A stretch of DNA of 64,000 nucleotides. Origin: Candidatus Sysuiplasma superficiale (GTDB taxonomy: Archaea; Thermoplasmatota; Thermoplasmata; Sysuiplasmatales; Sysuiplasmataceae). Positions 11,211-23,888 of this stretch are shown here, piece after piece (the first letter of the stretch is position 1; each line of letters begins with the position of its first letter). The notes below the pieces were generated by a model. The model had not been told where the DNA came from, did not search any database, and worked only from the letters and a program-made list of their open reading frames with translations. Position numbers and translations under genes: made by a program. Location of the stretch: positions 11,719 to 75,718 of the forward strand of contig JAGVSJ010000005.1 of assembly GCA_019720975.1 (NCBI GenBank). Direction: 5' to 3'.

Positions 11211-11735
11211 GTGGCAGAAGTCTATGCATACATTGCCGGCGAGGACGATCCAAAGAAGTGCACCGCGCGGAAAATGGTACGGTTCAGTCTGGCACATCCT
11301 GTAATGAAGCTCGCGCACATACCGCAGAATGCGGTCGTTCTCGATCCTACAGCCGCAAAGGCCCTTTCGGCCGAAGACAGACGGCGGATTGAGACTTCAG
11401 GCGTTGCAGTGCTTGATTTCTCATGGAGAAACATAGAATCCAACCCTCCTCTGCTAAGGTTCCAGCACAGGAGGGCACTTCCGTATCTCCTTGCCGCAAA
11501 TCCCGTAATGTGGGGCAGGCCTCTCCAGCTGAGCAGCGTGGAGGCTGTGGCTGCTGCGCTGTACATAGCGGGATTGCGCGAACAGGCGCTGAATACGCTT
11601 TCAAAATTTTCCTGGGGTCTGAATTTCATCACACTCAACAGGGAACCGCTGGAAAGATATGCGGCTGCCAGGACCAGCAGGGAAGTGGTAGAAATACAAT
11701 GGGAATATGTCTGCAGACCGGAAGGAGCACTTTGA
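11211..11735 (+). CDS. tsr3: 16S rRNA aminocarboxypropyltransferase Tsr3 (DUF367)
   Basis: 174 aa, GTG start. Blocks GEDDPKKCTARKM, LDFSW, LPYLLAANP and NYGRP-like (MWGRP). Confidence 0.85.
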   Translation: MAEVYAYIAGEDDPKKCTARKMVRFSLAHPVMKLAHIPQNAVVLDPTAAKALSAEDRRRIETSGVAVLDFSWRNIESNPPLLRFQHRRALPYLLAANPVMWGRPLQLSSVEAVAAALYIAGLREQALNTLSKFSWGLNFITLNREPLERYAAARTSREVVEIQWEYVCRPEGAL

Positions 11736-15361: not shown

Positions 15362-16306
15362 TTAATCTTTATGATGCGCGGGGAAATCAAATGGAATTAC
15401 ATCGCTTGCCTCGTTGGTCCAGCTCTCGGGTGTCGGGGCGCCCCAGAAGGTCTGGCGCCTTGGGTCGTGCACAGACCACCTGACAGGCTGAAGGTCAGGG
15501 TCTGCTGCCATGTAGTCTCCCGTATACAGCTCTATCCTGTGCCTGTCCGAGTCCCTCAGATAGAGAAAGAATGCGTTTGTAATCCCATGCCTTCCCGGAC
15601 CCCTTTCGATGCTGCGGAAATATCCCGATGAGGAGAGTATATCTGCGCAGTCGAGTATGCTGTCCCTGTCGGAAACAATGAAACCTGCATGATGGAAGCG
15701 CGGCCCATGCCCGCGCATTACAGCTATGTCATGGCTGGACTGCTTTCTCCTCAGCCACGCCGCCTGCATGCTGCCGTCGTCATCTTCAGTGAATTCCGAT
15801 AGTGCAAAATGAAGCTTCTCAACGTACCACTTCACAGTTCCAGCGACATCGGGCACGAGCACGTTGAAGTGGTCGATGCGCATTATCCTGCCGCCATGAT
15901 GCGAATGGTATTTCTGCAGTTCCCATTCCACCGCATCTGTACGGTAGAATAATTCCACAGGGAAGCCAGAGGGATCCTGGAAGCGGAGAGAAGGACCGAT
16001 ACCCTTCTCCTCCCCCTCCGCCAGCGAATGACGGATGCCCTCGGCCTCAAGGAATCTTTCTGCCTTCTTCATATCCAGTTCCGAGCGGAGTCTGAATGCC
16101 ATGTGCGAAAGGCCGGGCCTCCTCCCTTCTGTAAGAACGAGCGAATGATGTGTCCTGTCTTCTATCCCCCTGAGGTACACTCTGCTGCCCTCGGAAGCCG
16201 TTTCAACCATGCCCAGAGTTGCAGAATAGTACCTTCTTGCCTCATCAATGTCGGTCACGACATATTCGATATGTGATGCCCTGACGATATCGAACGGGGC
16301 ATCCAT
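15362..16306 (-). CDS. hpaD: Homoprotocatechuate (3,4-dihydroxyphenylacetate) 2,3-dioxygenase, type I extradiol
   Basis: Start set at ATG 16306, 4 nt after the hpaB stop. Blocks RIDHFNVLVPDV, GPRFHHAGF and ERGPGRHGITNAFFLYLRDSDRHRIELYT match the HPCD/MndD family closely. Confidence 0.88.
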   Translation of the reverse strand: MDAPFDIVRASHIEYVVTDIDEARRYYSATLGMVETASEGSRVYLRGIEDRTHHSLVLTEGRRPGLSHMAFRLRSELDMKKAERFLEAEGIRHSLAEGEEKGIGPSLRFQDPSGFPVELFYRTDAVEWELQKYHSHHGGRIMRIDHFNVLVPDVAGTVKWYVEKLHFALSEFTEDDDGSMQAAWLRRKQSSHDIAVMRGHGPRFHHAGFIVSDRDSILDCADILSSSGYFRSIERGPGRHGITNAFFLYLRDSDRHRIELYTGDYMAADPDLQPVRWSVHDPRRQTFWGAPTPESWTNEASDVIPFDFPAHHKD

Positions 16307-16310
16307 CCGT

Positions 16311-17768
16311 TCAGTCCTCCCTGTCCAGAAAATCGCTGACCATTTTCCTGAAATGGGATGTGTCATACCAGGAGTAAAATGCACTGGCCATCCTCACAGG
16401 GTCGCCGAAGAAGAATCTTTCATACATCTCCTGCCTTGAGCCGAAGGAGCTGCCGGCTATGTCCCACGCAAGCTTGAACAGCCTGATTCTCTCCTCGGCA
16501 CCGGAATTCTTTCCCTGGTAATATGTGTCTATATAGTGCCTGATCTCGCTTTCCATGTCTGCGGAGGAGGGCATTGCCATCAGGCCGCTGGCTCCAAGCT
16601 GCTGAAGCGTTTCCCTGATAGAAGGATAGAGGCGCGGATAGACGTTCCTGGCTACATTGAGATACTTGAAGCGCGGTGTCATTATGCCCCAGCTGTTCAG
16701 CTCCGCCTCCTGCTCTGATGCAATCAGCAAGGCCCGCAACGATTCCAGTATCATTTCGATCCTTGCAACCTTCTCCTGCACATGCTGGAACTGCCCGATA
16801 CCGATTGTTTCCACCATAAGGGAGACAACACCGAGAATGAATTCTGTCTTTGCTATCTCACGTGTAACCACCTGATGCGACATGTGCACAACAGCATCCG
16901 TCCGCTCGTGCAGCACATTTGCCCTTTCTGCATCCTCAAGCAGAAAGATACGCTCACGGGGAACGAAGACATCATCGAAGACAACAACAGCATCCATCTC
17001 CTCGAATCCGTAGGCAAGTGGATGATCGAACCTTGAATCGGAGCAGAAGGGCTCCCTGCAGAGAAACTTCAGGCCTGGAGAGTCGACAGGTATTGCGAAG
17101 GCCATTGAATACGGCAAATCCTCCGGTCCAGACTTTATCACAGTGGAGGGGAAAACAATTATTTCGTCTGCTAGAGGAAAGGTTGCGAGCATCCTTGCGC
17201 CCCTTACCACTATGCCGTCCCTTCTCTTCTCCACTATCCTCGCGGCAATGAACGGATCCTTCTGCTTCGATGGCGGTGCCGACCTGTTTGTCTGAGGGTT
17301 TATCAGGGTGTGAGTCATCAGAAGGTCATTCTCCCTCACGTATGTGTAGTAATTGACAATGTTTTCGCCGAATGAAGGGTCGGCGAGGGAAAAGAATCTT
17401 GAGGCGGAGGCCATCGCCATGATGTCGCTGTTGAGGTAATCCGGCGTTCTGCCCAGCATGCCGCCGGAGTAATCCGCCCAGCGCTTCATCATACGCCTTC
17501 TCCTAAGGAGGTCCTCTCTTGTTACGGGTTGAAGAAAACTCATTCCCACCCTGTCACCCGTGGAGGGGGAGACATATGTCATCTCATCCTCAAGTTCCGG
17601 GTCGCACTGCATGTCATAAAGTTTTGACATGGTGACAGCCATCTGTCTGAAGGCGGGATGTTCGGTGATGCCTGTTGTTATCTTTCTTCCACCGATCCAC
17701 ACCTCCCTCCTTGTTCTGTCAAGATCGTCCAAATACTTTCTGCCGTTCCTGACTGGCAAATTTATCAC
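16311..17768 (-). CDS. hpaB: 4-hydroxyphenylacetate 3-monooxygenase, oxygenase component (HpaB family)
   Basis: 485 aa. HpaB-type N-terminus (GRKYLDDL..REVWIGGRKI..ITEHPAF) and family-wide collinear blocks. Confidence 0.88.
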   Translation of the reverse strand: MINLPVRNGRKYLDDLDRTRREVWIGGRKITTGITEHPAFRQMAVTMSKLYDMQCDPELEDEMTYVSPSTGDRVGMSFLQPVTREDLLRRRRMMKRWADYSGGMLGRTPDYLNSDIMAMASASRFFSLADPSFGENIVNYYTYVRENDLLMTHTLINPQTNRSAPPSKQKDPFIAARIVEKRRDGIVVRGARMLATFPLADEIIVFPSTVIKSGPEDLPYSMAFAIPVDSPGLKFLCREPFCSDSRFDHPLAYGFEEMDAVVVFDDVFVPRERIFLLEDAERANVLHERTDAVVHMSHQVVTREIAKTEFILGVVSLMVETIGIGQFQHVQEKVARIEMILESLRALLIASEQEAELNSWGIMTPRFKYLNVARNVYPRLYPSIRETLQQLGASGLMAMPSSADMESEIRHYIDTYYQGKNSGAEERIRLFKLAWDIAGSSFGSRQEMYERFFFGDPVRMASAFYSWYDTSHFRKMVSDFLDRED

Positions 17769-17788
17769 CTGTTCATATCCACTTCATC

Positions 17789-19318
17789 TTATTTAGAGGA
17801 TCCAGTGGTCTTCGCTCCCCCGCCCCGGACAGAAGAGCCGAAACGCGGTATCCTGTGCCTTCCAAGAGAGACATGAACCGTTTTCTCCTCCATGTAGAAA
17901 TCGAAGCTGTACCTTCCGCCCTCCCTGCCTATGCCGCTGCATTTCATGCCACCGAACGGTGTTCTCAGGTCGCGCACATTATGCGAGTTTATCCAGCAGA
18001 GACCTGCATCGAGCGCTGATGCCACCCTGTGTGCCCTCCCTATGTCCCTGCTCCACACATATGAGGCAAGACCGTACTGCGTGTCGTTTGCGATGGATAT
18101 TGCCTCTGCTTCATCTGAAAAACGCAGTGCGACGAGAACAGGTCCGAATATCTCCTCCCTCGCAATCTTCATACTGTTATCGACCTCAGTGAAGAGCGTC
18201 GGCTCCAGATAGTTTCCCTCGCGCAATCCTGCAGGTCTCCGTCCCCCCTGAAGGAGAACGGCTCCTTCCTCTTTGCCTGATTCAATGTAACCCATCACCC
18301 TCTTCAAATGTTCAGGATGGATCAGCGGGCCTATCTCCGTCTGTTCGTCGAGAGGGTCACCTATGGTTATGTTTCCGATCCTTTCAGCAACCGCATTCAC
18401 AAAGTCATCGTATATTGAATCCTGTAGCAGCAGCCTCGAATTCGCCGTGCACCTCTCACCGTTCAGCGAATAGACACCGAATATGACTGCATCGACAGCC
18501 CTTTCAATGTCAGCATCCTCAAAGACAACAGCAGGCGATTTGCCGCCTAGTTCCATTGAAAAACGTTTGAGTGTGGATGCACCGTTTCTCATTATTTCCA
18601 TTCCCGTGACCGTTTCCCCAGTGAATGATATGAGCCTCACTCCCGGATGCGACACAAGAGAGGCACCCGCTGTTTCACCAAACCCATGGACGAGGTTGAA
18701 CACTCCCTTTGGAAGGGATGTTCCGTCGATGAGCTCAGCAAGCCTTGAGGCAGTCAATGGCGACCATTCAGCAGGCTTCAGCACGCAGGTATCGCCTGCA
18801 GCGAGGCAGGGTGCTATCTTCCAGGTTTCGAGCATAAGCGGCGTATTCCATGGAGTGATCAGGCCGGCAACACCTGCAGGCCTCTTTTCCGTGTAGTTTA
18901 CAAATTCGCCTCTGAATGGAAAGGATTGGCCTGATATCTCCGTTGCCATGTCTGCAAAGAAGCGGAAGTTTTCCGCCGCTCTCGCGACCTGGCCCCTTGT
19001 CTGCCTGACAGGTATGCCTGTGTCAATTGCTTCCAGGACTGAGAGCTCCTCTGCATTCTCATCAATTGCGTCAGCAATCTCATTCAGAACGTTTCCTCTG
19101 TCCTCAGCATCCACGTCCCTCCACCCATGCCCTTCGAAGGCCTTTGAAGCCGAAGCAACTGCATCGTCTATATCGTCTGAGTCGCCCGAAGGAATCCTTG
19201 CAATAACAGAATTATCGGAAGGAGATATGTCCTCAAAGTATTCTCCGTTCCTGGACACAACAAAACGGCCGCCGATGTAGTGCTTCGCCGGCCGGTTAGT
19301 TAACCTTTCAGCTGACAT
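17789..19318 (-). CDS. hpaE: NAD-dependent aldehyde dehydrogenase, probably 5-carboxymethyl-2-hydroxymuconate semialdehyde dehydrogenase
   Basis: Start set at ATG 19318 (GGAGGAAAAGA upstream). ALDH motifs ELGGKSP and GERCTANSRLL. It ends 20 nt upstream of hpaB. The substrate assignment comes from context only. Confidence 0.8.
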   Translation of the reverse strand: MSAERLTNRPAKHYIGGRFVVSRNGEYFEDISPSDNSVIARIPSGDSDDIDDAVASASKAFEGHGWRDVDAEDRGNVLNEIADAIDENAEELSVLEAIDTGIPVRQTRGQVARAAENFRFFADMATEISGQSFPFRGEFVNYTEKRPAGVAGLITPWNTPLMLETWKIAPCLAAGDTCVLKPAEWSPLTASRLAELIDGTSLPKGVFNLVHGFGETAGASLVSHPGVRLISFTGETVTGMEIMRNGASTLKRFSMELGGKSPAVVFEDADIERAVDAVIFGVYSLNGERCTANSRLLLQDSIYDDFVNAVAERIGNITIGDPLDEQTEIGPLIHPEHLKRVMGYIESGKEEGAVLLQGGRRPAGLREGNYLEPTLFTEVDNSMKIAREEIFGPVLVALRFSDEAEAISIANDTQYGLASYVWSRDIGRAHRVASALDAGLCWINSHNVRDLRTPFGGMKCSGIGREGGRYSFDFYMEEKTVHVSLGRHRIPRFGSSVRGGGAKTTGSSK

Positions 19319-19695
19319 TCTTTTCCTCCGCGGATGCGTTGGAAGATACGTGGTGTTCCACTCTAAAATTGTTCGTATGCCACGGGATGCCATTTGAGAT
19401 GCAATCCTGCTGTTCAACTCACCTCCGCAATCCAGTACTCCGGGGAGGCTGAAATATTGCAGGGAAAGCCTCCTGCATCTGACGGGCACGCTGATGCGGG
19501 CAGCAAACTAAACAGCTGTTTTCCCAACTGTGGCCACATCCTGCAGTATTTCGTTTCACCGTTCGCGGAGGGTGCTTCTCACTTCCATCGAAAGGTGCCC
19601 GGCCATTCTCCTCTAACAGGTAAAACTCCTGCACCCTGGCGTTCGCTTTGCTGCGGGCTGCAATCACCTTCTGAACCTGTCGCCGCCTCTTCCCT

Positions 19696-20388
19696 TCATT
19701 TTGGCCTTTCCGGGTAGACAAGCACAATGCCAGTGCCAACGGAGGCGGCAACGAGAGCGAATGGTCCGATGACGGCGTACCAGGGAACAAAATCCAGCCC
19801 CTGCGTATCCACAGTTATCACCTCGCCGGTTGACTGGACAAATGGCTTCGAAGCGGCAATTGTCCGGAATGAAAATGACTGGGCATAGCCGCCCGGCGCT
19901 GATGGAGAAAGCAGGGAGAATGAAAGCGTGGAATTACTTCCTGGCGTGGCGTTCGCAGGCACGTACACGTCTATGACGTCTGAAAAGCTGCTGCCGGAAT
20001 AAAGAGTGAAAGCGGTGTGCTCAATGGAGTAAGTCCATCCACCTGGTCCTGTGAAATTTATATCAGCGATTGAAAGGGGTATGGCCCTGTAACCGTCCCT
20101 TGCGCTGAAATTGATGTAGTAGGTTGCGGGAGTACCGCTGGTCTGAACAAGGCTTGTTGCACTGGTTGACTGTGTTATTGATGTCGGTGTGAGGAACAGG
20201 TAGCCTACGAAGACCAGACAAACAAGGACCACAACAGCTACTATGTCCAGTATCTCGATTCTCACGTTCACGGGTGGAAATAGCCAGCTATTAATTAATG
20301 TCTTCTGTCTGTTTGGGGGATTGCCGCAAAAAAAGGGTGAAAGCAGTTTGGTAAAAGGTTTGGGGAGTCGTATAGCATGAATGCTCAT
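19696..20388 (-). CDS. Hypothetical bitopic envelope protein (N-terminal TM, beta-rich ectodomain, C-terminal TM)
   Basis: 230 aa. The ATG overlaps the stop of the upstream giant gene (ATGA 20385-20388). TM segments are ILDIVAVVVLVCLVFVGYLF and AVIGPFALVAASVGTGIVLV. The ectodomain carries N-x-S/T sequons. Confidence 0.6.
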   Translation of the reverse strand: MSIHAIRLPKPFTKLLSPFFCGNPPNRQKTLINSWLFPPVNVRIEILDIVAVVVLVCLVFVGYLFLTPTSITQSTSATSLVQTSGTPATYYINFSARDGYRAIPLSIADINFTGPGGWTYSIEHTAFTLYSGSSFSDVIDVYVPANATPGSNSTLSFSLLSPSAPGGYAQSFSFRTIAASKPFVQSTGEVITVDTQGLDFVPWYAVIGPFALVAASVGTGIVLVYPERPK

Positions 20389-23147
20389 GTCGGTGGACCG
20401 GTGGGATTCAGAAACAGGAACGCAATCGACTCAGCAAGGTGGCTTCCTGCACTTCCGCTGACTGAAAGCGGAAGACCTGCAAAATGGCCGGTAGCCTGTC
20501 CGGTGATGCTGAACGAACCCTGGACATAGAGCGATGAACCTGCGTATGCGAGGGGCTGGACAAACATCAGCTTTATCTTCACTGATGGGGCTGCTGTATT
20601 GAATGCATAAGCAGACTCTGCTTCAGTTCCCTGCTGTTCGACTGGATTGCTGTTTTCACTGCTGCCTTCGTTACCATGTTCCGTGGTTGAAGAGCCAATA
20701 CTCAAAGTGCCGTTATCAAGACAGATGATTGTCGTATAGGACGGTGACTGCGCGCTGAGCTCTATGTGTATTCCGCCTTTGACAGAAACGGTCATATGGG
20801 AGTTGTTGAGGCATATGAGGGTGTAGAACTGCAGCACCGTCACATTCTGCGGTGGAGGTGGAGGTGGGGGCGGCGGAGGTGCTCCTTCGATGCCAACCGA
20901 AAAACCGCCCTTTATGCTGACGTCCATGGTGGAGTTGCGTAGGAATATGTATGTCTCGATCTGCAGTTCGAACGGGCCTGGCGGGGGCGGCGGAGGTGTC
21001 TGAACTCCGAGATTCAGTCCTCCGCTTACGGAAAGGGTCATGCTGGAATGGTCCATGACTACAAGTGTCAGCACAGGTATTGTTGAATTCGATGGCGGCG
21101 CGTAATTCACTGAGAGGTGAAGTCCTCCGCTGATGCGCAATGAGGCTTCAGAACTGTTCATGAGGATGGATGTGTAGATGAGCGTTGCAGTCGAATTTGT
21201 GCCTGTGGAACTCATTCCGGCCGGAGTCGGTGCACTCTGCTCCTGCTCGCCGCCGTTGATGTTGACGGATATCTCCGAATTGTTGCTGTATATCTGCGTC
21301 GATGTGATGATCCGGACCTGCTGCGATGGGGGTGAAGGCTGCATTGTGCCAACTGTGATTCCGCCGTTTATGTTCAGCTGGAGTTCCGAATTGTTTGCGA
21401 TAACAACTGTGTCGAATATGAATTCGCTCTGTGCCGGCGGTTGAATATTCAGCTCTATGTGTATTCCGCCGTTGATGCTGAGTGCCATTTCAGAGTTGTT
21501 GAGGCATATCAGCGTGTAGAACATGAATACCTCCATGTTTCCCGGCGGTGGCGGTGTCATTGGCATGGCACGGACATGCACATGTATTCCGCCGTTGATG
21601 CGTACTGAAAGGCTCGAGTTGGAAAGACAGACGGATGTATATACCAGGTAGTTCGGCCTGGGGAGCGATGTGTTGGTTGCTGTCACTATGAAGGTGAGCG
21701 TTGAACTGTTCTGGATTCCGGCGGAAGATGAGGCGGTGATGGTAACGACGAACGTTCTGTTGAAAGAGAACAGGCTTGAGATGACGGACGGGCTGAGCGG
21801 CGGCGGAATCACTATCGGCGCTGTATAGTTTGCATCAGTGCTGCTGGAATTGATCTGCTGCAGTGCAACCCATGGCACACTCGATGTCCAGGTCAGGTTG
21901 CCTGTGATGTTGATTGCGGCAAATTCAATGAGGTATGTGCCAGTTGCGCCCGAAGGTACCGTGACTGTTGCCGGGAGGTTCCGGAATATTATCCTGCCTG
22001 TAGGCGGTGCGGTCACCGGCTTCTCGAATAAGACATTGAATGTTATCGTTGAGGAGTTGCTCACGTTGTTGCTCGAAACCACCGATATCTTGACTGTGAA
22101 GGAAATATTCGCACTGACAACGGGGGCAGTGTAGTTTGCGTAGGCTGCTGTACCGTTGTGTGTGGATACATTTACCCAGCTTGCATTGGCTGTCCAGGTC
22201 AGCGGCTGTGATGCGTTGACTGCTGTGTAGTTGATGATGAATGTTCCCTTGGCACCCGACTGAACAGTTATAGTTGCTGGAAGGTTGTCCAGTTCTATGC
22301 GTGAGACTGGATGAACTGTGACAGGTGAAATGACATCGATGACGGTTAGTGTCGAGCTGTTTGTTGCGCCGTTTGCTGACAGGACTGATATGTTTGCAAC
22401 GTAAGTTGTGTTTACAGTCACAACCGGCGCAGTGAAACTTGCAAGTGCGGTCGTGCTGTTAACTGTTGAAACGGACATCCAGCTCTGATTGGTTGACCAT
22501 GTAAGTGGCTGTCTCACATCGACTGCAGTATAATTTATGACATAGCTGCCGGAGCTGCCTGACTGGACTGTCACTGTTGCCGGCAGGTTGGTCAGGGAGA
22601 TGGAGGGCTTCTGGGTCACAGGAGGCCTTGTCACAGGATGATAACTGGTCACGTTGACAGTGACGAACGAAGGAGAAACACTTCCAAGTGTTGCCTGTTC
22701 GTAGAAATAGAGCTTGCCGCTTGCATTTTCGTTTCCTGAAACTACAACACTTATGTTTCTGTCAGTGAAGCCGACTGGCATTTCTCCGAGAGTGGACTGA
22801 ACTGCCTTCCCCCCGTTGATGACGTTCCAGTTACTTCCCCTCACGCTGAAATAGGCTGTTGCGTTGGTGACTGGCGACTGGGTGTCGAAACTGATTGTTA
22901 TGCCCTCAACATATCTCAGATTTACAGTGAATGTGAGGGTATAACTCTGGTTTGTGCTTACGGACATGTTCACAACAGACGGATAACCGGAGACAGTTGC
23001 GCTTCCCGGAAGCGAGGTGGATGGCAATGTGTGCCTGCTCTGCAGCATGGTAAGGTAGATGGCAAGCCCGCTGATTATCAGTACAGCAACGACGGCCGTA
23101 ACAACTATGCGTCTCCCGGTTCTGGTCTTGAGCAATTTTCCGAGCAT
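20385..23147 (-). CDS. Large N-terminally anchored surface protein with Ig/BACON-like domains and a novel tandem repeat array
   Basis: 920 aa. Signal anchor RRIVVTAVVAVLIISGLAIYL. About 40 N-x-S/T sequons by hand count. Three ~95-aa repeats are followed by 8-9 repeats of 34-43 aa separated by proline runs. Confidence 0.85.
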   Translation of the reverse strand: MLGKLLKTRTGRRIVVTAVVAVLIISGLAIYLTMLQSRHTLPSTSLPGSATVSGYPSVVNMSVSTNQSYTLTFTVNLRYVEGITISFDTQSPVTNATAYFSVRGSNWNVINGGKAVQSTLGEMPVGFTDRNISVVVSGNENASGKLYFYEQATLGSVSPSFVTVNVTSYHPVTRPPVTQKPSISLTNLPATVTVQSGSSGSYVINYTAVDVRQPLTWSTNQSWMSVSTVNSTTALASFTAPVVTVNTTYVANISVLSANGATNSSTLTVIDVISPVTVHPVSRIELDNLPATITVQSGAKGTFIINYTAVNASQPLTWTANASWVNVSTHNGTAAYANYTAPVVSANISFTVKISVVSSNNVSNSSTITFNVLFEKPVTAPPTGRIIFRNLPATVTVPSGATGTYLIEFAAINITGNLTWTSSVPWVALQQINSSSTDANYTAPIVIPPPLSPSVISSLFSFNRTFVVTITASSSAGIQNSSTLTFIVTATNTSLPRPNYLVYTSVCLSNSSLSVRINGGIHVHVRAMPMTPPPPGNMEVFMFYTLICLNNSEMALSINGGIHIELNIQPPAQSEFIFDTVVIANNSELQLNINGGITVGTMQPSPPSQQVRIITSTQIYSNNSEISVNINGGEQEQSAPTPAGMSSTGTNSTATLIYTSILMNSSEASLRISGGLHLSVNYAPPSNSTIPVLTLVVMDHSSMTLSVSGGLNLGVQTPPPPPPGPFELQIETYIFLRNSTMDVSIKGGFSVGIEGAPPPPPPPPPPQNVTVLQFYTLICLNNSHMTVSVKGGIHIELSAQSPSYTTIICLDNGTLSIGSSTTEHGNEGSSENSNPVEQQGTEAESAYAFNTAAPSVKIKLMFVQPLAYAGSSLYVQGSFSITGQATGHFAGLPLSVSGSAGSHLAESIAFLFLNPTGPPT
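20688..21653 (-). repeat. Coding tandem array: 8-9 copies of a 34-43-aa unit, consensus roughly [FL]xFYTLICLNNSxMxLSxNGGIHIELxxxPP(P)n
   Basis: Units start at residues 499, 541, 576, 612, 655, 693, 731, 772 and 806 (partial) of the 920-aa protein. Each ends in a P-rich linker (TPPPPG, QPPAQ, PSPPSQ, APPS, TPPPPPPGP, APPPPPPPPPPQ). Confidence 0.85.
20850..20879 (-). repeat. Ten consecutive proline codons (GGN-rich simple sequence on the + strand)
   Basis: The + strand reads cggtggaggtggaggtgggggcggcggagg, which is P757-P766 of the surface protein. Confidence 0.95.
21678..22601 (-). repeat. Three tandem ~95-105-aa Ig/BACON-like domain repeats
   Basis: Recurring blocks: NLPATVTVQSGSSGSYVINYTAV..PLTWSTNQSWMSVS..FTAPVV..; NLPATITVQSGAKGTFIINYTAV..PLTWTANASWVNVS..YTAPVV..; NLPATVTVPSGATGTYLIEFAAI..LTWTSSVPWVAL..YTAPIV. 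Confidence 0.8.
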
Positions 23148-23159
23148 GGCGTGTTACCC

Positions 23160-23888
23160 TCAGCCCGAACCTGCGGTTCCGCCGGCCGTACCGCTGTGCT
23201 CACTGGCCTTCTGCCTCGCCTCAATGTCTACCTTCAGCTGTTGGATCTCTGAATTAACCTTTTCCATTCTTGCCTTGAGCTTCATCCTGTAGCTGTCATT
23301 ACGGTAGATTATGGAGTCGTAGTCACTCTGAGTTATCTCATTCTTTGCTATACGGGTTTTACTCCCCTGTTCTATCATATCACATATTCTCAATTCCTCC
23401 TCCAGTTTCTCCTTCTCCTTCGTGAGTATAAGGAGCTTCTTTGACAGTCTGCTGATCTCGGTTTCGGCGACAACGGGCTCAGCAGTCTTTGCACCCTCAA
23501 TCAGAGAGAGCACACCAGAATCAGCCAGTCCCCCAACTGCACCGCCTGTCAGGGAAAGTATGATAAAAAATACCATTGTGAATATCTCCTGCGAAGAGCC
23601 GGAGCTTGCGACATAGGGCGAAACGGTGGAACGAAAGGGAACCATCGCGAGTGGGTAGTACATGAAAAACCTCTGCCAGTAGAGAAGCGCACCGATAGCT
23701 GTCAGCGAGAAAATGAATACCATTGCGAATGGTGATGACCTGCGGATGCGCGGACTGAAGATGCCTCCGGCCACTGCGGATGCGAGAAACACTGACGGAT
23801 ATGCGGGTGAGGGCAGAAAATAATACATTAGAGAGAGAGCCAGAACTGCACAAGCTACACCAGCAACTACCCTGTATGCAGTTTTCAT
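23160..23888 (-). CDS. Hypothetical membrane protein with C-terminal coiled coil
   Basis: 242 aa with about 4-5 TM helices. These are followed by a heptad-rich segment (ISRLSKKLLILTKEKEKLEEELRICD .. KLKARMEKVNSEIQQLKVDIEARQKA) and a G/T/A-rich tail. It ends 12 nt upstream of the giant surface gene. Confidence 0.6.
   Translation of the reverse strand: MKTAYRVVAGVACAVLALSLMYYFLPSPAYPSVFLASAVAGGIFSPRIRRSSPFAMVFIFSLTAIGALLYWQRFFMYYPLAMVPFRSTVSPYVASSGSSQEIFTMVFFIILSLTGGAVGGLADSGVLSLIEGAKTAEPVVAETEISRLSKKLLILTKEKEKLEEELRICDMIEQGSKTRIAKNEITQSDYDSIIYRNDSYRMKLKARMEKVNSEIQQLKVDIEARQKASEHSGTAGGTAGSG

Follow-up and report, generated by a model that had tools for sequence, protein, structure and literature searches.

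A tandem repeat in a Candidatus Sysuiplasma surface protein is predicted to form a three-sided parallel beta-solenoid with a candidate N-glycosylation site per unit

The 64,000-nucleotide stretch of Candidatus Sysuiplasma superficiale DNA analyzed here (the window; positions 11,719 to 75,718 of contig JAGVSJ010000005.1, assembly GCA_019720975.1) comes from an acid-mine-drainage Thermoplasmata archaeon of the Sysuiplasma group. On its minus strand it carries a 920-residue open reading frame (ORF), predicted to be a surface glycoprotein, in which eight full units and one degenerate unit of a tandem repeat occupy residues 499-830. Judging from structure models, we put the probability that residues ~499-830 form one three-sided parallel beta-solenoid of about nine rungs at roughly 0.6. 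The best-supported description is of an unannotated repeat family with predicted long rungs, an N-x-S/T sequon on each rung and, in this lineage, proline-rich corner loops. Coordinates are collected in Table 1.

The position and reading frame of the repeat had been given correctly by a first-pass annotation made from the DNA letters. Window positions 20688-21653 (minus strand) encode residues 499-820, and the array extends to about residue 830 (window position 20658). Each unit has a core of 25-26 residues, hIYTxIxL-NNS-ELxhxIN-GG-IHhxh, followed by a variable linker; in unit 1 the core is YLVYTSVCL-SNS-SLSVRIN-GG-IHVHV and the linker holds PPPP. The nine segments originally named fit one common pattern, and their profile recovers nine units. 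When the profile is made from the units of homologues alone, the real protein scores 231.8 bits and 500 shuffles reach at most 7.3 bits, which bears out the earlier count of eight full copies and one partial copy. Unit starts defined by hidden Markov model (HMM) lie at residues 500, 541, 576, 613, 655, 690, 728, 772 and 802/805, and the homologue-only profile places them at 500, 542, 580, 617, 655, 690, 730 and 773; its ninth, at 805, is weak. The starts proposed at first agree with these except in units 6 and 7, where 693 and 731 are three residues out of register. Other elements of that description are right for most of the array. The G-G doublet, described as invariant, is present in eight of the nine units and absent from unit 9; the N-N-S or N-S-S/T sequon is missing from a single full unit, unit 6 (MDHSS); and linker proline runs do span 2 to 10 residues (2, 2, 2, 4, 6 and 10), although units 4 and 8 lack even two adjacent prolines. 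In unit 4 a disordered insertion of about 20 residues takes the place of the third strand, and unit 9 is probably a C-terminal cap rung.

Copies of the direct repeat share 60-76% identity in their DNA, and the polyproline codon run, a GGTGGA run at 20851-20867 in unit 7, is all that Tandem Repeats Finder reports. The array is therefore old rather than a recent expansion, and recent tandem duplication of the DNA is ruled out. Units 2 and 8 share 19 of 26 residues in the 920-residue ORF, and 104 nucleotides of their DNA are 72% identical. Inside each protein these two units match at 18-23 of 28 positions, compared with 15-21 of 28 for orthologous units across species, and in the homologue P0004 the similarity reaches into the preceding linker (QGNQSTVY). 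Distant rungs may thus undergo gene conversion or evolve in concert.

The consensus of 57 units is (I/V)3-Y4-T5-x-I7-(C/Y)8-(L/M)9-N10-N11-S12-E13-(L/M)14-x-(V/I)16-x-(I/V)18-(N/D)19-G20-G21-(I/V)22-H23-(I/L/V)24-x-(L/I/V)26. Positions 5/7/9, 14/16/18 and 22/24/26 are Thr or hydrophobic in 82-100% of these units and, read from the alignment, alternate as a putative inward-facing set. The arcs between the strands are nearly invariant (S12 in 56, G20 in 56 and G21 in 55 of the 57 units), which is the conservation that stacked ladders produce. In a structure model of the repeat region, the first strand (s1) ends at N10, N11-S12 forms an arc, the second strand (s2) runs from E13 to N19, and the G20-G21 arc leads into the third strand (s3). 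One repeat would make one rung, composed of s1 (hIYTxIxL), the N-N-S arc, s2 (ELxhxIN), the G-G arc, s3 (IHhxh) and a third corner, with the variable linker serving as that third corner and closing the rung. At 4.8 Å per rung, the single chain would form a three-sided parallel beta-solenoid roughly 4-4.5 nm long. Homologues with few prolines in their linkers have a start-to-start period of 33-36 residues, apart from the unit-4 insertion, and no full unit shorter than 33; this floor would fit a minimum length for rung closure. The opinion that the period is too long for a beta-helix coil fails once the linker is read as a variable third corner of the rung.

The models were made with AlphaFold2. 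For the full-length protein (16 sequences; predicted local distance difference test score, pLDDT, 66) the model has three strands per unit, low-confidence linkers and a disordered C-terminal 100 residues. Its Foldseek matches, dominated by the immunoglobulin (Ig)-like arrays of titin, cadherin, SbsB and RTX-adhesin, are uninformative on the repeat, and because the Ig-like array dominated them the repeat region was modelled alone (residues 493-826, 334 residues; 10 repeat-bearing sequences). The region model has a mean pLDDT of 76.9 and a predicted template modelling score (pTM) of 0.78. Its strand blocks score 90-98, and pLDDT falls below 50 only in the unit-4 insertion (634-654) and the last four residues. 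Every full unit other than unit 4 again shows three strands, so that this part of the first-pass annotation is seen in both models, and unit 9 has two, at residues 311-319 and 322-328 of the region model. A pTM of 0.78 over 334 residues implies that the units are confidently placed relative to one another.

Most of the top-ranked PDB structures matched by Foldseek to the region model are beta-solenoids, all of them weak matches. The best are SufB/SufD (probability 0.99, TM-score 0.34-0.36); others are the fucoidan lyase FdlA, pertactin, tapirin, polygalacturonases, YbhC, a pentapeptide-repeat protein, the SRRP adhesin, the hyper-glycosylated TibA (PDB 4q1q; rank 32, E = 1.1), Hap and Ag43. Matches in the Foldseek viral library are weak as well, some of them to proteins named as parallel beta-helix repeat, pectate-lyase-superfamily or curlin-associated. 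By these model comparisons the fold class is indicated, with no close structural relative in the libraries searched.

The first-pass annotation had pictured the array as beads on a string, that is, independent three-stranded mini-domains of ~25 residues separated by rigid polyproline-II spacers and each bearing one glycan, and had held that a prediction of one continuous known fold would speak against this. Structure prediction returned one compact body with mostly beta-helix neighbours, a continuous beta-helix-like fold with proline loops. Three strands and a sequon in each unit, linkers at pLDDT 45-70 and proline runs of up to 10 residues all suit beads; however, a low pTM is what independent beads on flexible linkers should give, and the isolated region instead reaches 0.78 with solenoids as most of its top-ranked neighbours. 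In addition, the inward hydrophobic positions need an adjoining rung for their burial, and a unit of 25 residues that has neither disulfides nor metal sites is not large enough to fold by itself. The linkers of the homologues bear on the same question. Proline makes up 31% of the linkers in the window protein, 15-26% in P0002, P0003, P0004 and P0006, and just 2-5% in P0005, P0007, P0008, P0009 and P0011, whose linkers are only 8-11 residues long. The core repeat is conserved equally well in the proline-poor proteins. Since the repeat and its period of 33-36 persist at 2-5% linker proline in these five, out of nine homologues that bear it, the spacer argument loses its basis; compared across the family, polyproline appears to be a lineage-specific composition of the third corner rather than something that defines the repeat. 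The proline-rich third corner would be a solenoid loop, and more generally proline runs between repeats need not be interdomain spacers. We consider the arrangement as beads highly improbable.

Several points count against the solenoid. No structural match in the PDB and viral libraries reaches E<1e-3, and TM-scores are about 0.3. Parallel stacking and handedness rest on the pTM and on the type of Foldseek neighbour; AlphaFold2 favours solenoids for repetitive beta-rich sequences; the alignment behind the region model is shallow, at 10 sequences; and the rungs would have 33-44 residues in place of the usual 22-25. AlphaFold2 was moreover run on the monomer only, which leaves room for the monomeric solenoid to be a prediction artefact, with the repeats assembling between chains (as a trimeric triple-beta-helix, a beta-spiral fibre or a lattice) or with the products of neighbouring genes. 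The second, outward stripe of s1 is partly hydrophobic (Y at position 4, C/Y at position 8), as would suit an interface, and partner genes are conserved. On the other hand, the monomer model has high confidence within the chain, a single-chain solenoid satisfies the inward/outward pattern, and fibre-type structures are absent from the high-ranking matches, so that we hold assembly between chains to be improbable. An eight-bladed beta-propeller-like ring of Kelch or LVIVD style, with one G-G doublet per blade, is hardly credible: eight units do have the doublet after a hydrophobic strand, and a period of 34-44 residues lies near the lower end of blade sizes, but there are three strands per unit instead of the four of an antiparallel blade of 40-55 residues, s1 is 10-13 residues long, the top 50 matches listed by Foldseek include no propeller, Pfam gives no match to a Kelch, LVIVD or other propeller model, and orthologues have anywhere from 6 to 9 units, a spread that a closed ring would poorly tolerate.

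At the sequence level the repeat is a previously unrecognised family. A Pfam-A hmmscan found no family for the 920-residue protein (E<=1) or for the repeat regions of 10 family members (E<=10), and an NCBIfam scan found nothing at E<=10; matches to YkpC and INTS7_C and single weak matches to DGF-1 and DUF2807 were set aside as noise. Sequence searches of the PDB with profiles of nine units, 44 units and the whole array gave chance matches only (E>0.5). An exhaustive HMMER search with a 30-position profile of 44 units against 1.84 billion representative proteins yielded 13 proteins at E<=1e-3. Five of them are the family's own clusters (E 1e-53 to 1e-78) and the sole holders of the whole unit, which among these representatives is confined to metagenome-assembled genomes (MAGs) of Ca. 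Sysuiplasma-type Thermoplasmata. The other eight match in part, seven over about half the unit (within positions 11-28) and P0021 over positions 1-12; they were rejected as relatives, and the four inspected are Calx-beta-like or low-complexity repeats. The earlier statement that no described family has this signature thus held up, and an HMM of the units, which had been proposed as a check, matched no existing repeat family in the databases searched. Two further candidates were rejected. The unit profile has no hexad period and no Hexapep match, unlike a left-handed hexapeptide beta-helix with its [LIV]-[GAED]-x2-[STAV]-x hexads and 18-residue rungs; and units of 34-44 residues are too short for Ig-like or PKD domains (80-110 residues), as had been argued at the outset, the real Ig-like domains lying upstream at residues 181-491.

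It is possible, if doubtful, that the array is instead a very divergent member of a described right-handed beta-helix superfamily, either PbH1/Beta_helix/NosD or PMP-like (GGAI/FxxN). Foldseek places it in the same fold class. Its Asn/Gly-rich arcs look similar to Asn ladders and to the GGxI motif found in PMP repeats. Chlamydial and archaeal PMP repeats (PF02415, TIGR01376), in which GGA[ILV] and FxxN motifs alternate, are likewise short beta-helix repeats of surface proteins, and the resemblance to their G-G-[ILV] and Asn motifs serves as a lead only. In the Pfam and NCBIfam scans, however, the PMP models do not match, the unit motif is instead LNNSEL...INGGIH, and motif spacing and period differ. 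The PbH1-type families (Beta_helix PF13229, NosD PF05048, Pectate_lyase_3) likewise have no HMM match in Pfam at E<=1 for the protein or E<=10 for the repeat regions. Against such membership stand the absence of any Pfam or NCBIfam match at E<=1-10 for the protein or the 10 family members, the absence of a PDB sequence-profile match, the absence of bridging sequences outside the family among the 1.84 billion representatives, and a best TM-score of about 0.35. Rungs in beta-helix families have 22-25 residues; here three strands are present, yet the period is 33-44 and full units never fall below 33.

With the three-sided right-handed parallel beta-helix of pectate-lyase type (SufB/SufD being the best structural match) the repeat shares its predicted three-strand rungs, hydrophobic inward ladders, tight Asn/Gly-rich arcs and an extracellular domain. 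It differs in having no sequence-profile relationship and a TM-score of about 0.3, rungs of 33-44 residues and not about 22-25, a very long first strand, a proline-rich third corner and no recognisable catalytic signature. Archaeal adhesin-like proteins (ALPs) commonly pair a beta-helix with Ig-like domains, and in the Methanobacteriales those with a right-handed beta-helix and Ig-like domains have been proposed to bind glycans or polymers (PMC11532034). They are likewise large, repeat-rich archaeal surface proteins with Ig-like and beta-helical modules and a presumed role in surface interaction. The host here, in contrast, is an acidophilic member of the Thermoplasmata, a different phylum-level lineage; ALP beta-helices are recognised by PbH1/Beta_helix models and this repeat is not; and the solenoid here would be short (about nine rungs) in a protein with an N-terminal transmembrane (TM) anchor.

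The units would also form a regular series of candidate glycosylation sites, one per unit as first claimed. The sequon of the first turn is present in 65 of 67 units from ten proteins, usually in the form N10-x-S12 (59 units), and where N11 is replaced (by D, H, G, S or A) N10 and S12 are retained. Position 13 is normally Glu. In the units that have lost N10 it is Ser or Thr in eight of eight cases, compared with 10 of 49 otherwise (Fisher p = 6.7e-6; the units are phylogenetically non-independent and represent about six separate losses of N10, which tempers the test), and six of these eight carry a shifted sequon, N11-S12-[ST]13. Such compensatory retention points to selection for a glycosylation site beyond a structural Asn ladder alone. 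The 920-residue protein contains 39 N-x-S/T sequons, and its shuffles 16.2 +/- 3.4 (maximum 28).

As L9 points inward, the alternation along s1 would turn N10 outward at the corner. With N10 outward on each rung, potential N-glycans would line up along one edge of the solenoid. N-glycans 4.8 Å apart would be crowded, however, and occupancy of the putative sites may be partial, a further point against the model. Its fullest version would be a new solenoid architecture found only in Sysuiplasma-type Thermoplasmata, with an occupied N-glycan at the same corner of each long rung making a continuous "glycan ridge" and proline-rich polyproline-II segments as the third side. We regard this version as tentative, with the odds against it. 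If true, an acidophile would here protect its surface in a distinct way, by a glyco-armoured rod, and the O-heptosylated autotransporter helices would have their first N-linked counterpart. In TibA a glycosylation site repeated on each beta-helix rung gives a row of sugars along the helix. The likeness of the present repeat to the self-associating autotransporters TibA, AIDA-I and Ag43 lies in the per-rung site, which is deduced here from sequons alone. Those proteins are bacterial, with rungs of 19 residues and Ser O-heptosylation carried out in the cytoplasm by a dedicated heptosyltransferase; the archaeal repeat has N-x-S/T sequons, presumably for the oligosaccharyltransferase AglB, and no sequence similarity to them.

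MCM and NMD3 genes mark the window as archaeal. A search of 5.8 billion protein clusters found 15 homologues at 35-57% identity, all in Thermoplasmata MAGs; the named ones belong to Candidatus Sysuiplasma jiujiangense and Ca. S. acidicola, and the others are listed as "Thermoplasmata archaeon". A scan of GTDB genomes with a single narrow peptide pattern, which is not evidence of absence elsewhere, found two loci, both in Thermoplasmata MAGs. Nine relatives (P0002-P0009 and P0011) bear 6-9 copies of the unit. Their arrays are orthologous column by column, with three units, an insertion unit, two to four further units and a degenerate last unit, and in every repeat-bearing homologue the third strand of the fourth unit is replaced by an insertion of 20-25 residues. 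Six relatives (P0010 and P0012-P0016; Ca. Sysuiplasma acidicola and relatives) form a sister subfamily that has no array and retains the C-terminal tail and, over the N-terminal two thirds, the anchor, the N-domain and the Ig-like repeats. At the array position they carry an unrelated segment of ~150 residues (GNGNYFVYTYQNLSVNKTF...), and the alignment suggests that the distal domain is swapped as a module between related species.

The significance of the repeat is mainly that of a family missed by domain databases, in a little-known uncultivated archaeal order, and of a hypothetical protein that becomes a predicted surface glycoprotein resolved into domains. Beta-solenoid surface proteins are well known, and no new kind of biology is involved. 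If confirmed, the arrangement of one sequon per rung, maintained by compensatory substitutions, would offer a clean test case in nature for the density at which an archaeal oligosaccharyltransferase can modify a regular scaffold, and for the protection that glycan coats give to cells at low pH.

The 920-residue ORF is laid out as a TM helix, an N-terminal beta-sandwich, three Ig-like domains, the repeat array and a C-terminal tail. Helix 9-33 is read as a signal-anchor. Just N-terminal to it R9, G11, R12 and R13 are invariant in the family alignment (K-T-R-x-G-R-R-I-V-V), and a twin-arginine export signal is possible; if true, it would bear on whether the solenoid folds before export. The invariant R-x-G-R-R may, though, reflect no more than the positive-inside rule of a signal-anchor. 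The N-terminal all-beta domain is kept in all 16 aligned family members. Each Ig-like domain opens with NLPAT(I/V)TV and is sequon-rich, and pairs of them share 39-50 identical residues. They match no Pfam model, except for a faint precomputed Bact_surface_Ig-like hit on P0005. Homologues differ in Ig-like copy number: P0005 has four, and P0010 as many as four or five. The C-terminal tail, which ends ...NPTGPPT, has the motifs [KM]IKL and terminal [ST]GPP in every family member, including those with no solenoid. These motifs could be a partner-binding or processing signal; unlike PGF-CTERM-type archaeosortase signals, they are followed by no TM helix.

Table 1. Features of the repeat-bearing protein and its conserved neighbours in the window. 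Bit scores are from the homologue-only profile for units 1-8 and from the all-unit profile for unit 9.
Feature	Residues	Window positions	Strand	Score (bits)	Remarks
ORF of 920 residues		20385-23147	minus		Predicted surface glycoprotein, anchor = N-terminal TM helix
N-terminal hydrophobic helix	9-33	23049-23123	minus		Helix in AlphaFold2 model
N-terminal all-beta domain	~45-170	22638-23015	minus		AlphaFold2 strands, pLDDT about 80-86
Three tandem Ig-like domains	181-273, 282-375, 384-491	21675-22607	minus		~95-108 residues each
Unit 1	499-540	21528-21653	minus	41.8	Three strands
Unit 2	541-575	21423-21527	minus	48.3	
Unit 3	576-611	21315-21422	minus	25.7	
Unit 4	612-654	21186-21314	minus	13.9	
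Unit 5	655-692	21072-21185	minus	36.8	
Unit 6	693-730 (in-register start 690)	20958-21071	minus	16.1	PPPPPP linker
Unit 7	731-771 (in-register start 728)	20835-20957	minus	28.5	P10 linker
Unit 8	772-805	20733-20834	minus	46.5	
Unit 9, degenerate	806-830	20658-20732	minus	28.8	Two strands, without G-G
C-terminal tail	831-920	20388-20657	minus		Predicted disordered, AlphaFold2 pLDDT 21-35
Upstream partner, 242-residue polytopic membrane protein		23160-23888	minus		C-terminal coiled coil
Downstream partner, about 191 residues		19696-20271	minus		N-terminal TM, sequon-bearing beta domain, C-terminal TM

The gene for the surface protein lies between two conserved partners, and two other MAGs (loci L001 and L002) have the three genes in an unchanged order, at 44-49% identity. 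In the upstream partner there are about four TM segments, and a coiled coil is strongly predicted at its C-terminus. This partner matches no known family, with weak SHE3 and WWC1 matches only; at both loci a protein of 46-49% identity holds the same position, always immediately upstream of the surface protein. For the downstream partner, the mechanically called ORF (window 19696-20388, 230 residues) begins with an ATG that overlaps the stop codon of the large gene. Because its orthologues at L001 and L002 (189 residues, 44-46% identity) align to residues 40-228, starting at VNVRIEILD..., the gene probably starts at a GTG at about 20271 and not at the ATG at 20388, leaving a gap of about 110 nucleotides. 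Wider synteny is also kept, covering genes for OGG, thiolase, an OB-fold protein, 3-hydroxyacyl-CoA dehydrogenase, acyl-CoA dehydrogenase and NUDIX.

Together with its two neighbours, the protein could belong to a three-component module of the cell envelope. The N-terminal helix would anchor it in the membrane, with the Ig-like domains projecting and the glycan-decorated solenoid outermost. From this layout we infer that the solenoid is a rigid outer module, coated with glycans, in a protein of cell-envelope or adhesin-like type; an adhesive function and a structural or protective one are not separable here.

Directly downstream of the three genes, at 15362-19489 (minus strand), the window carries extradiol dioxygenase-like, HpaB (4-hydroxyphenylacetate 3-hydroxylase) and aldehyde dehydrogenase genes, which look like a set for the degradation of aromatic compounds. 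At this position L001 and L002 have a Pro-kumamolisin-type protease with PKD domains.

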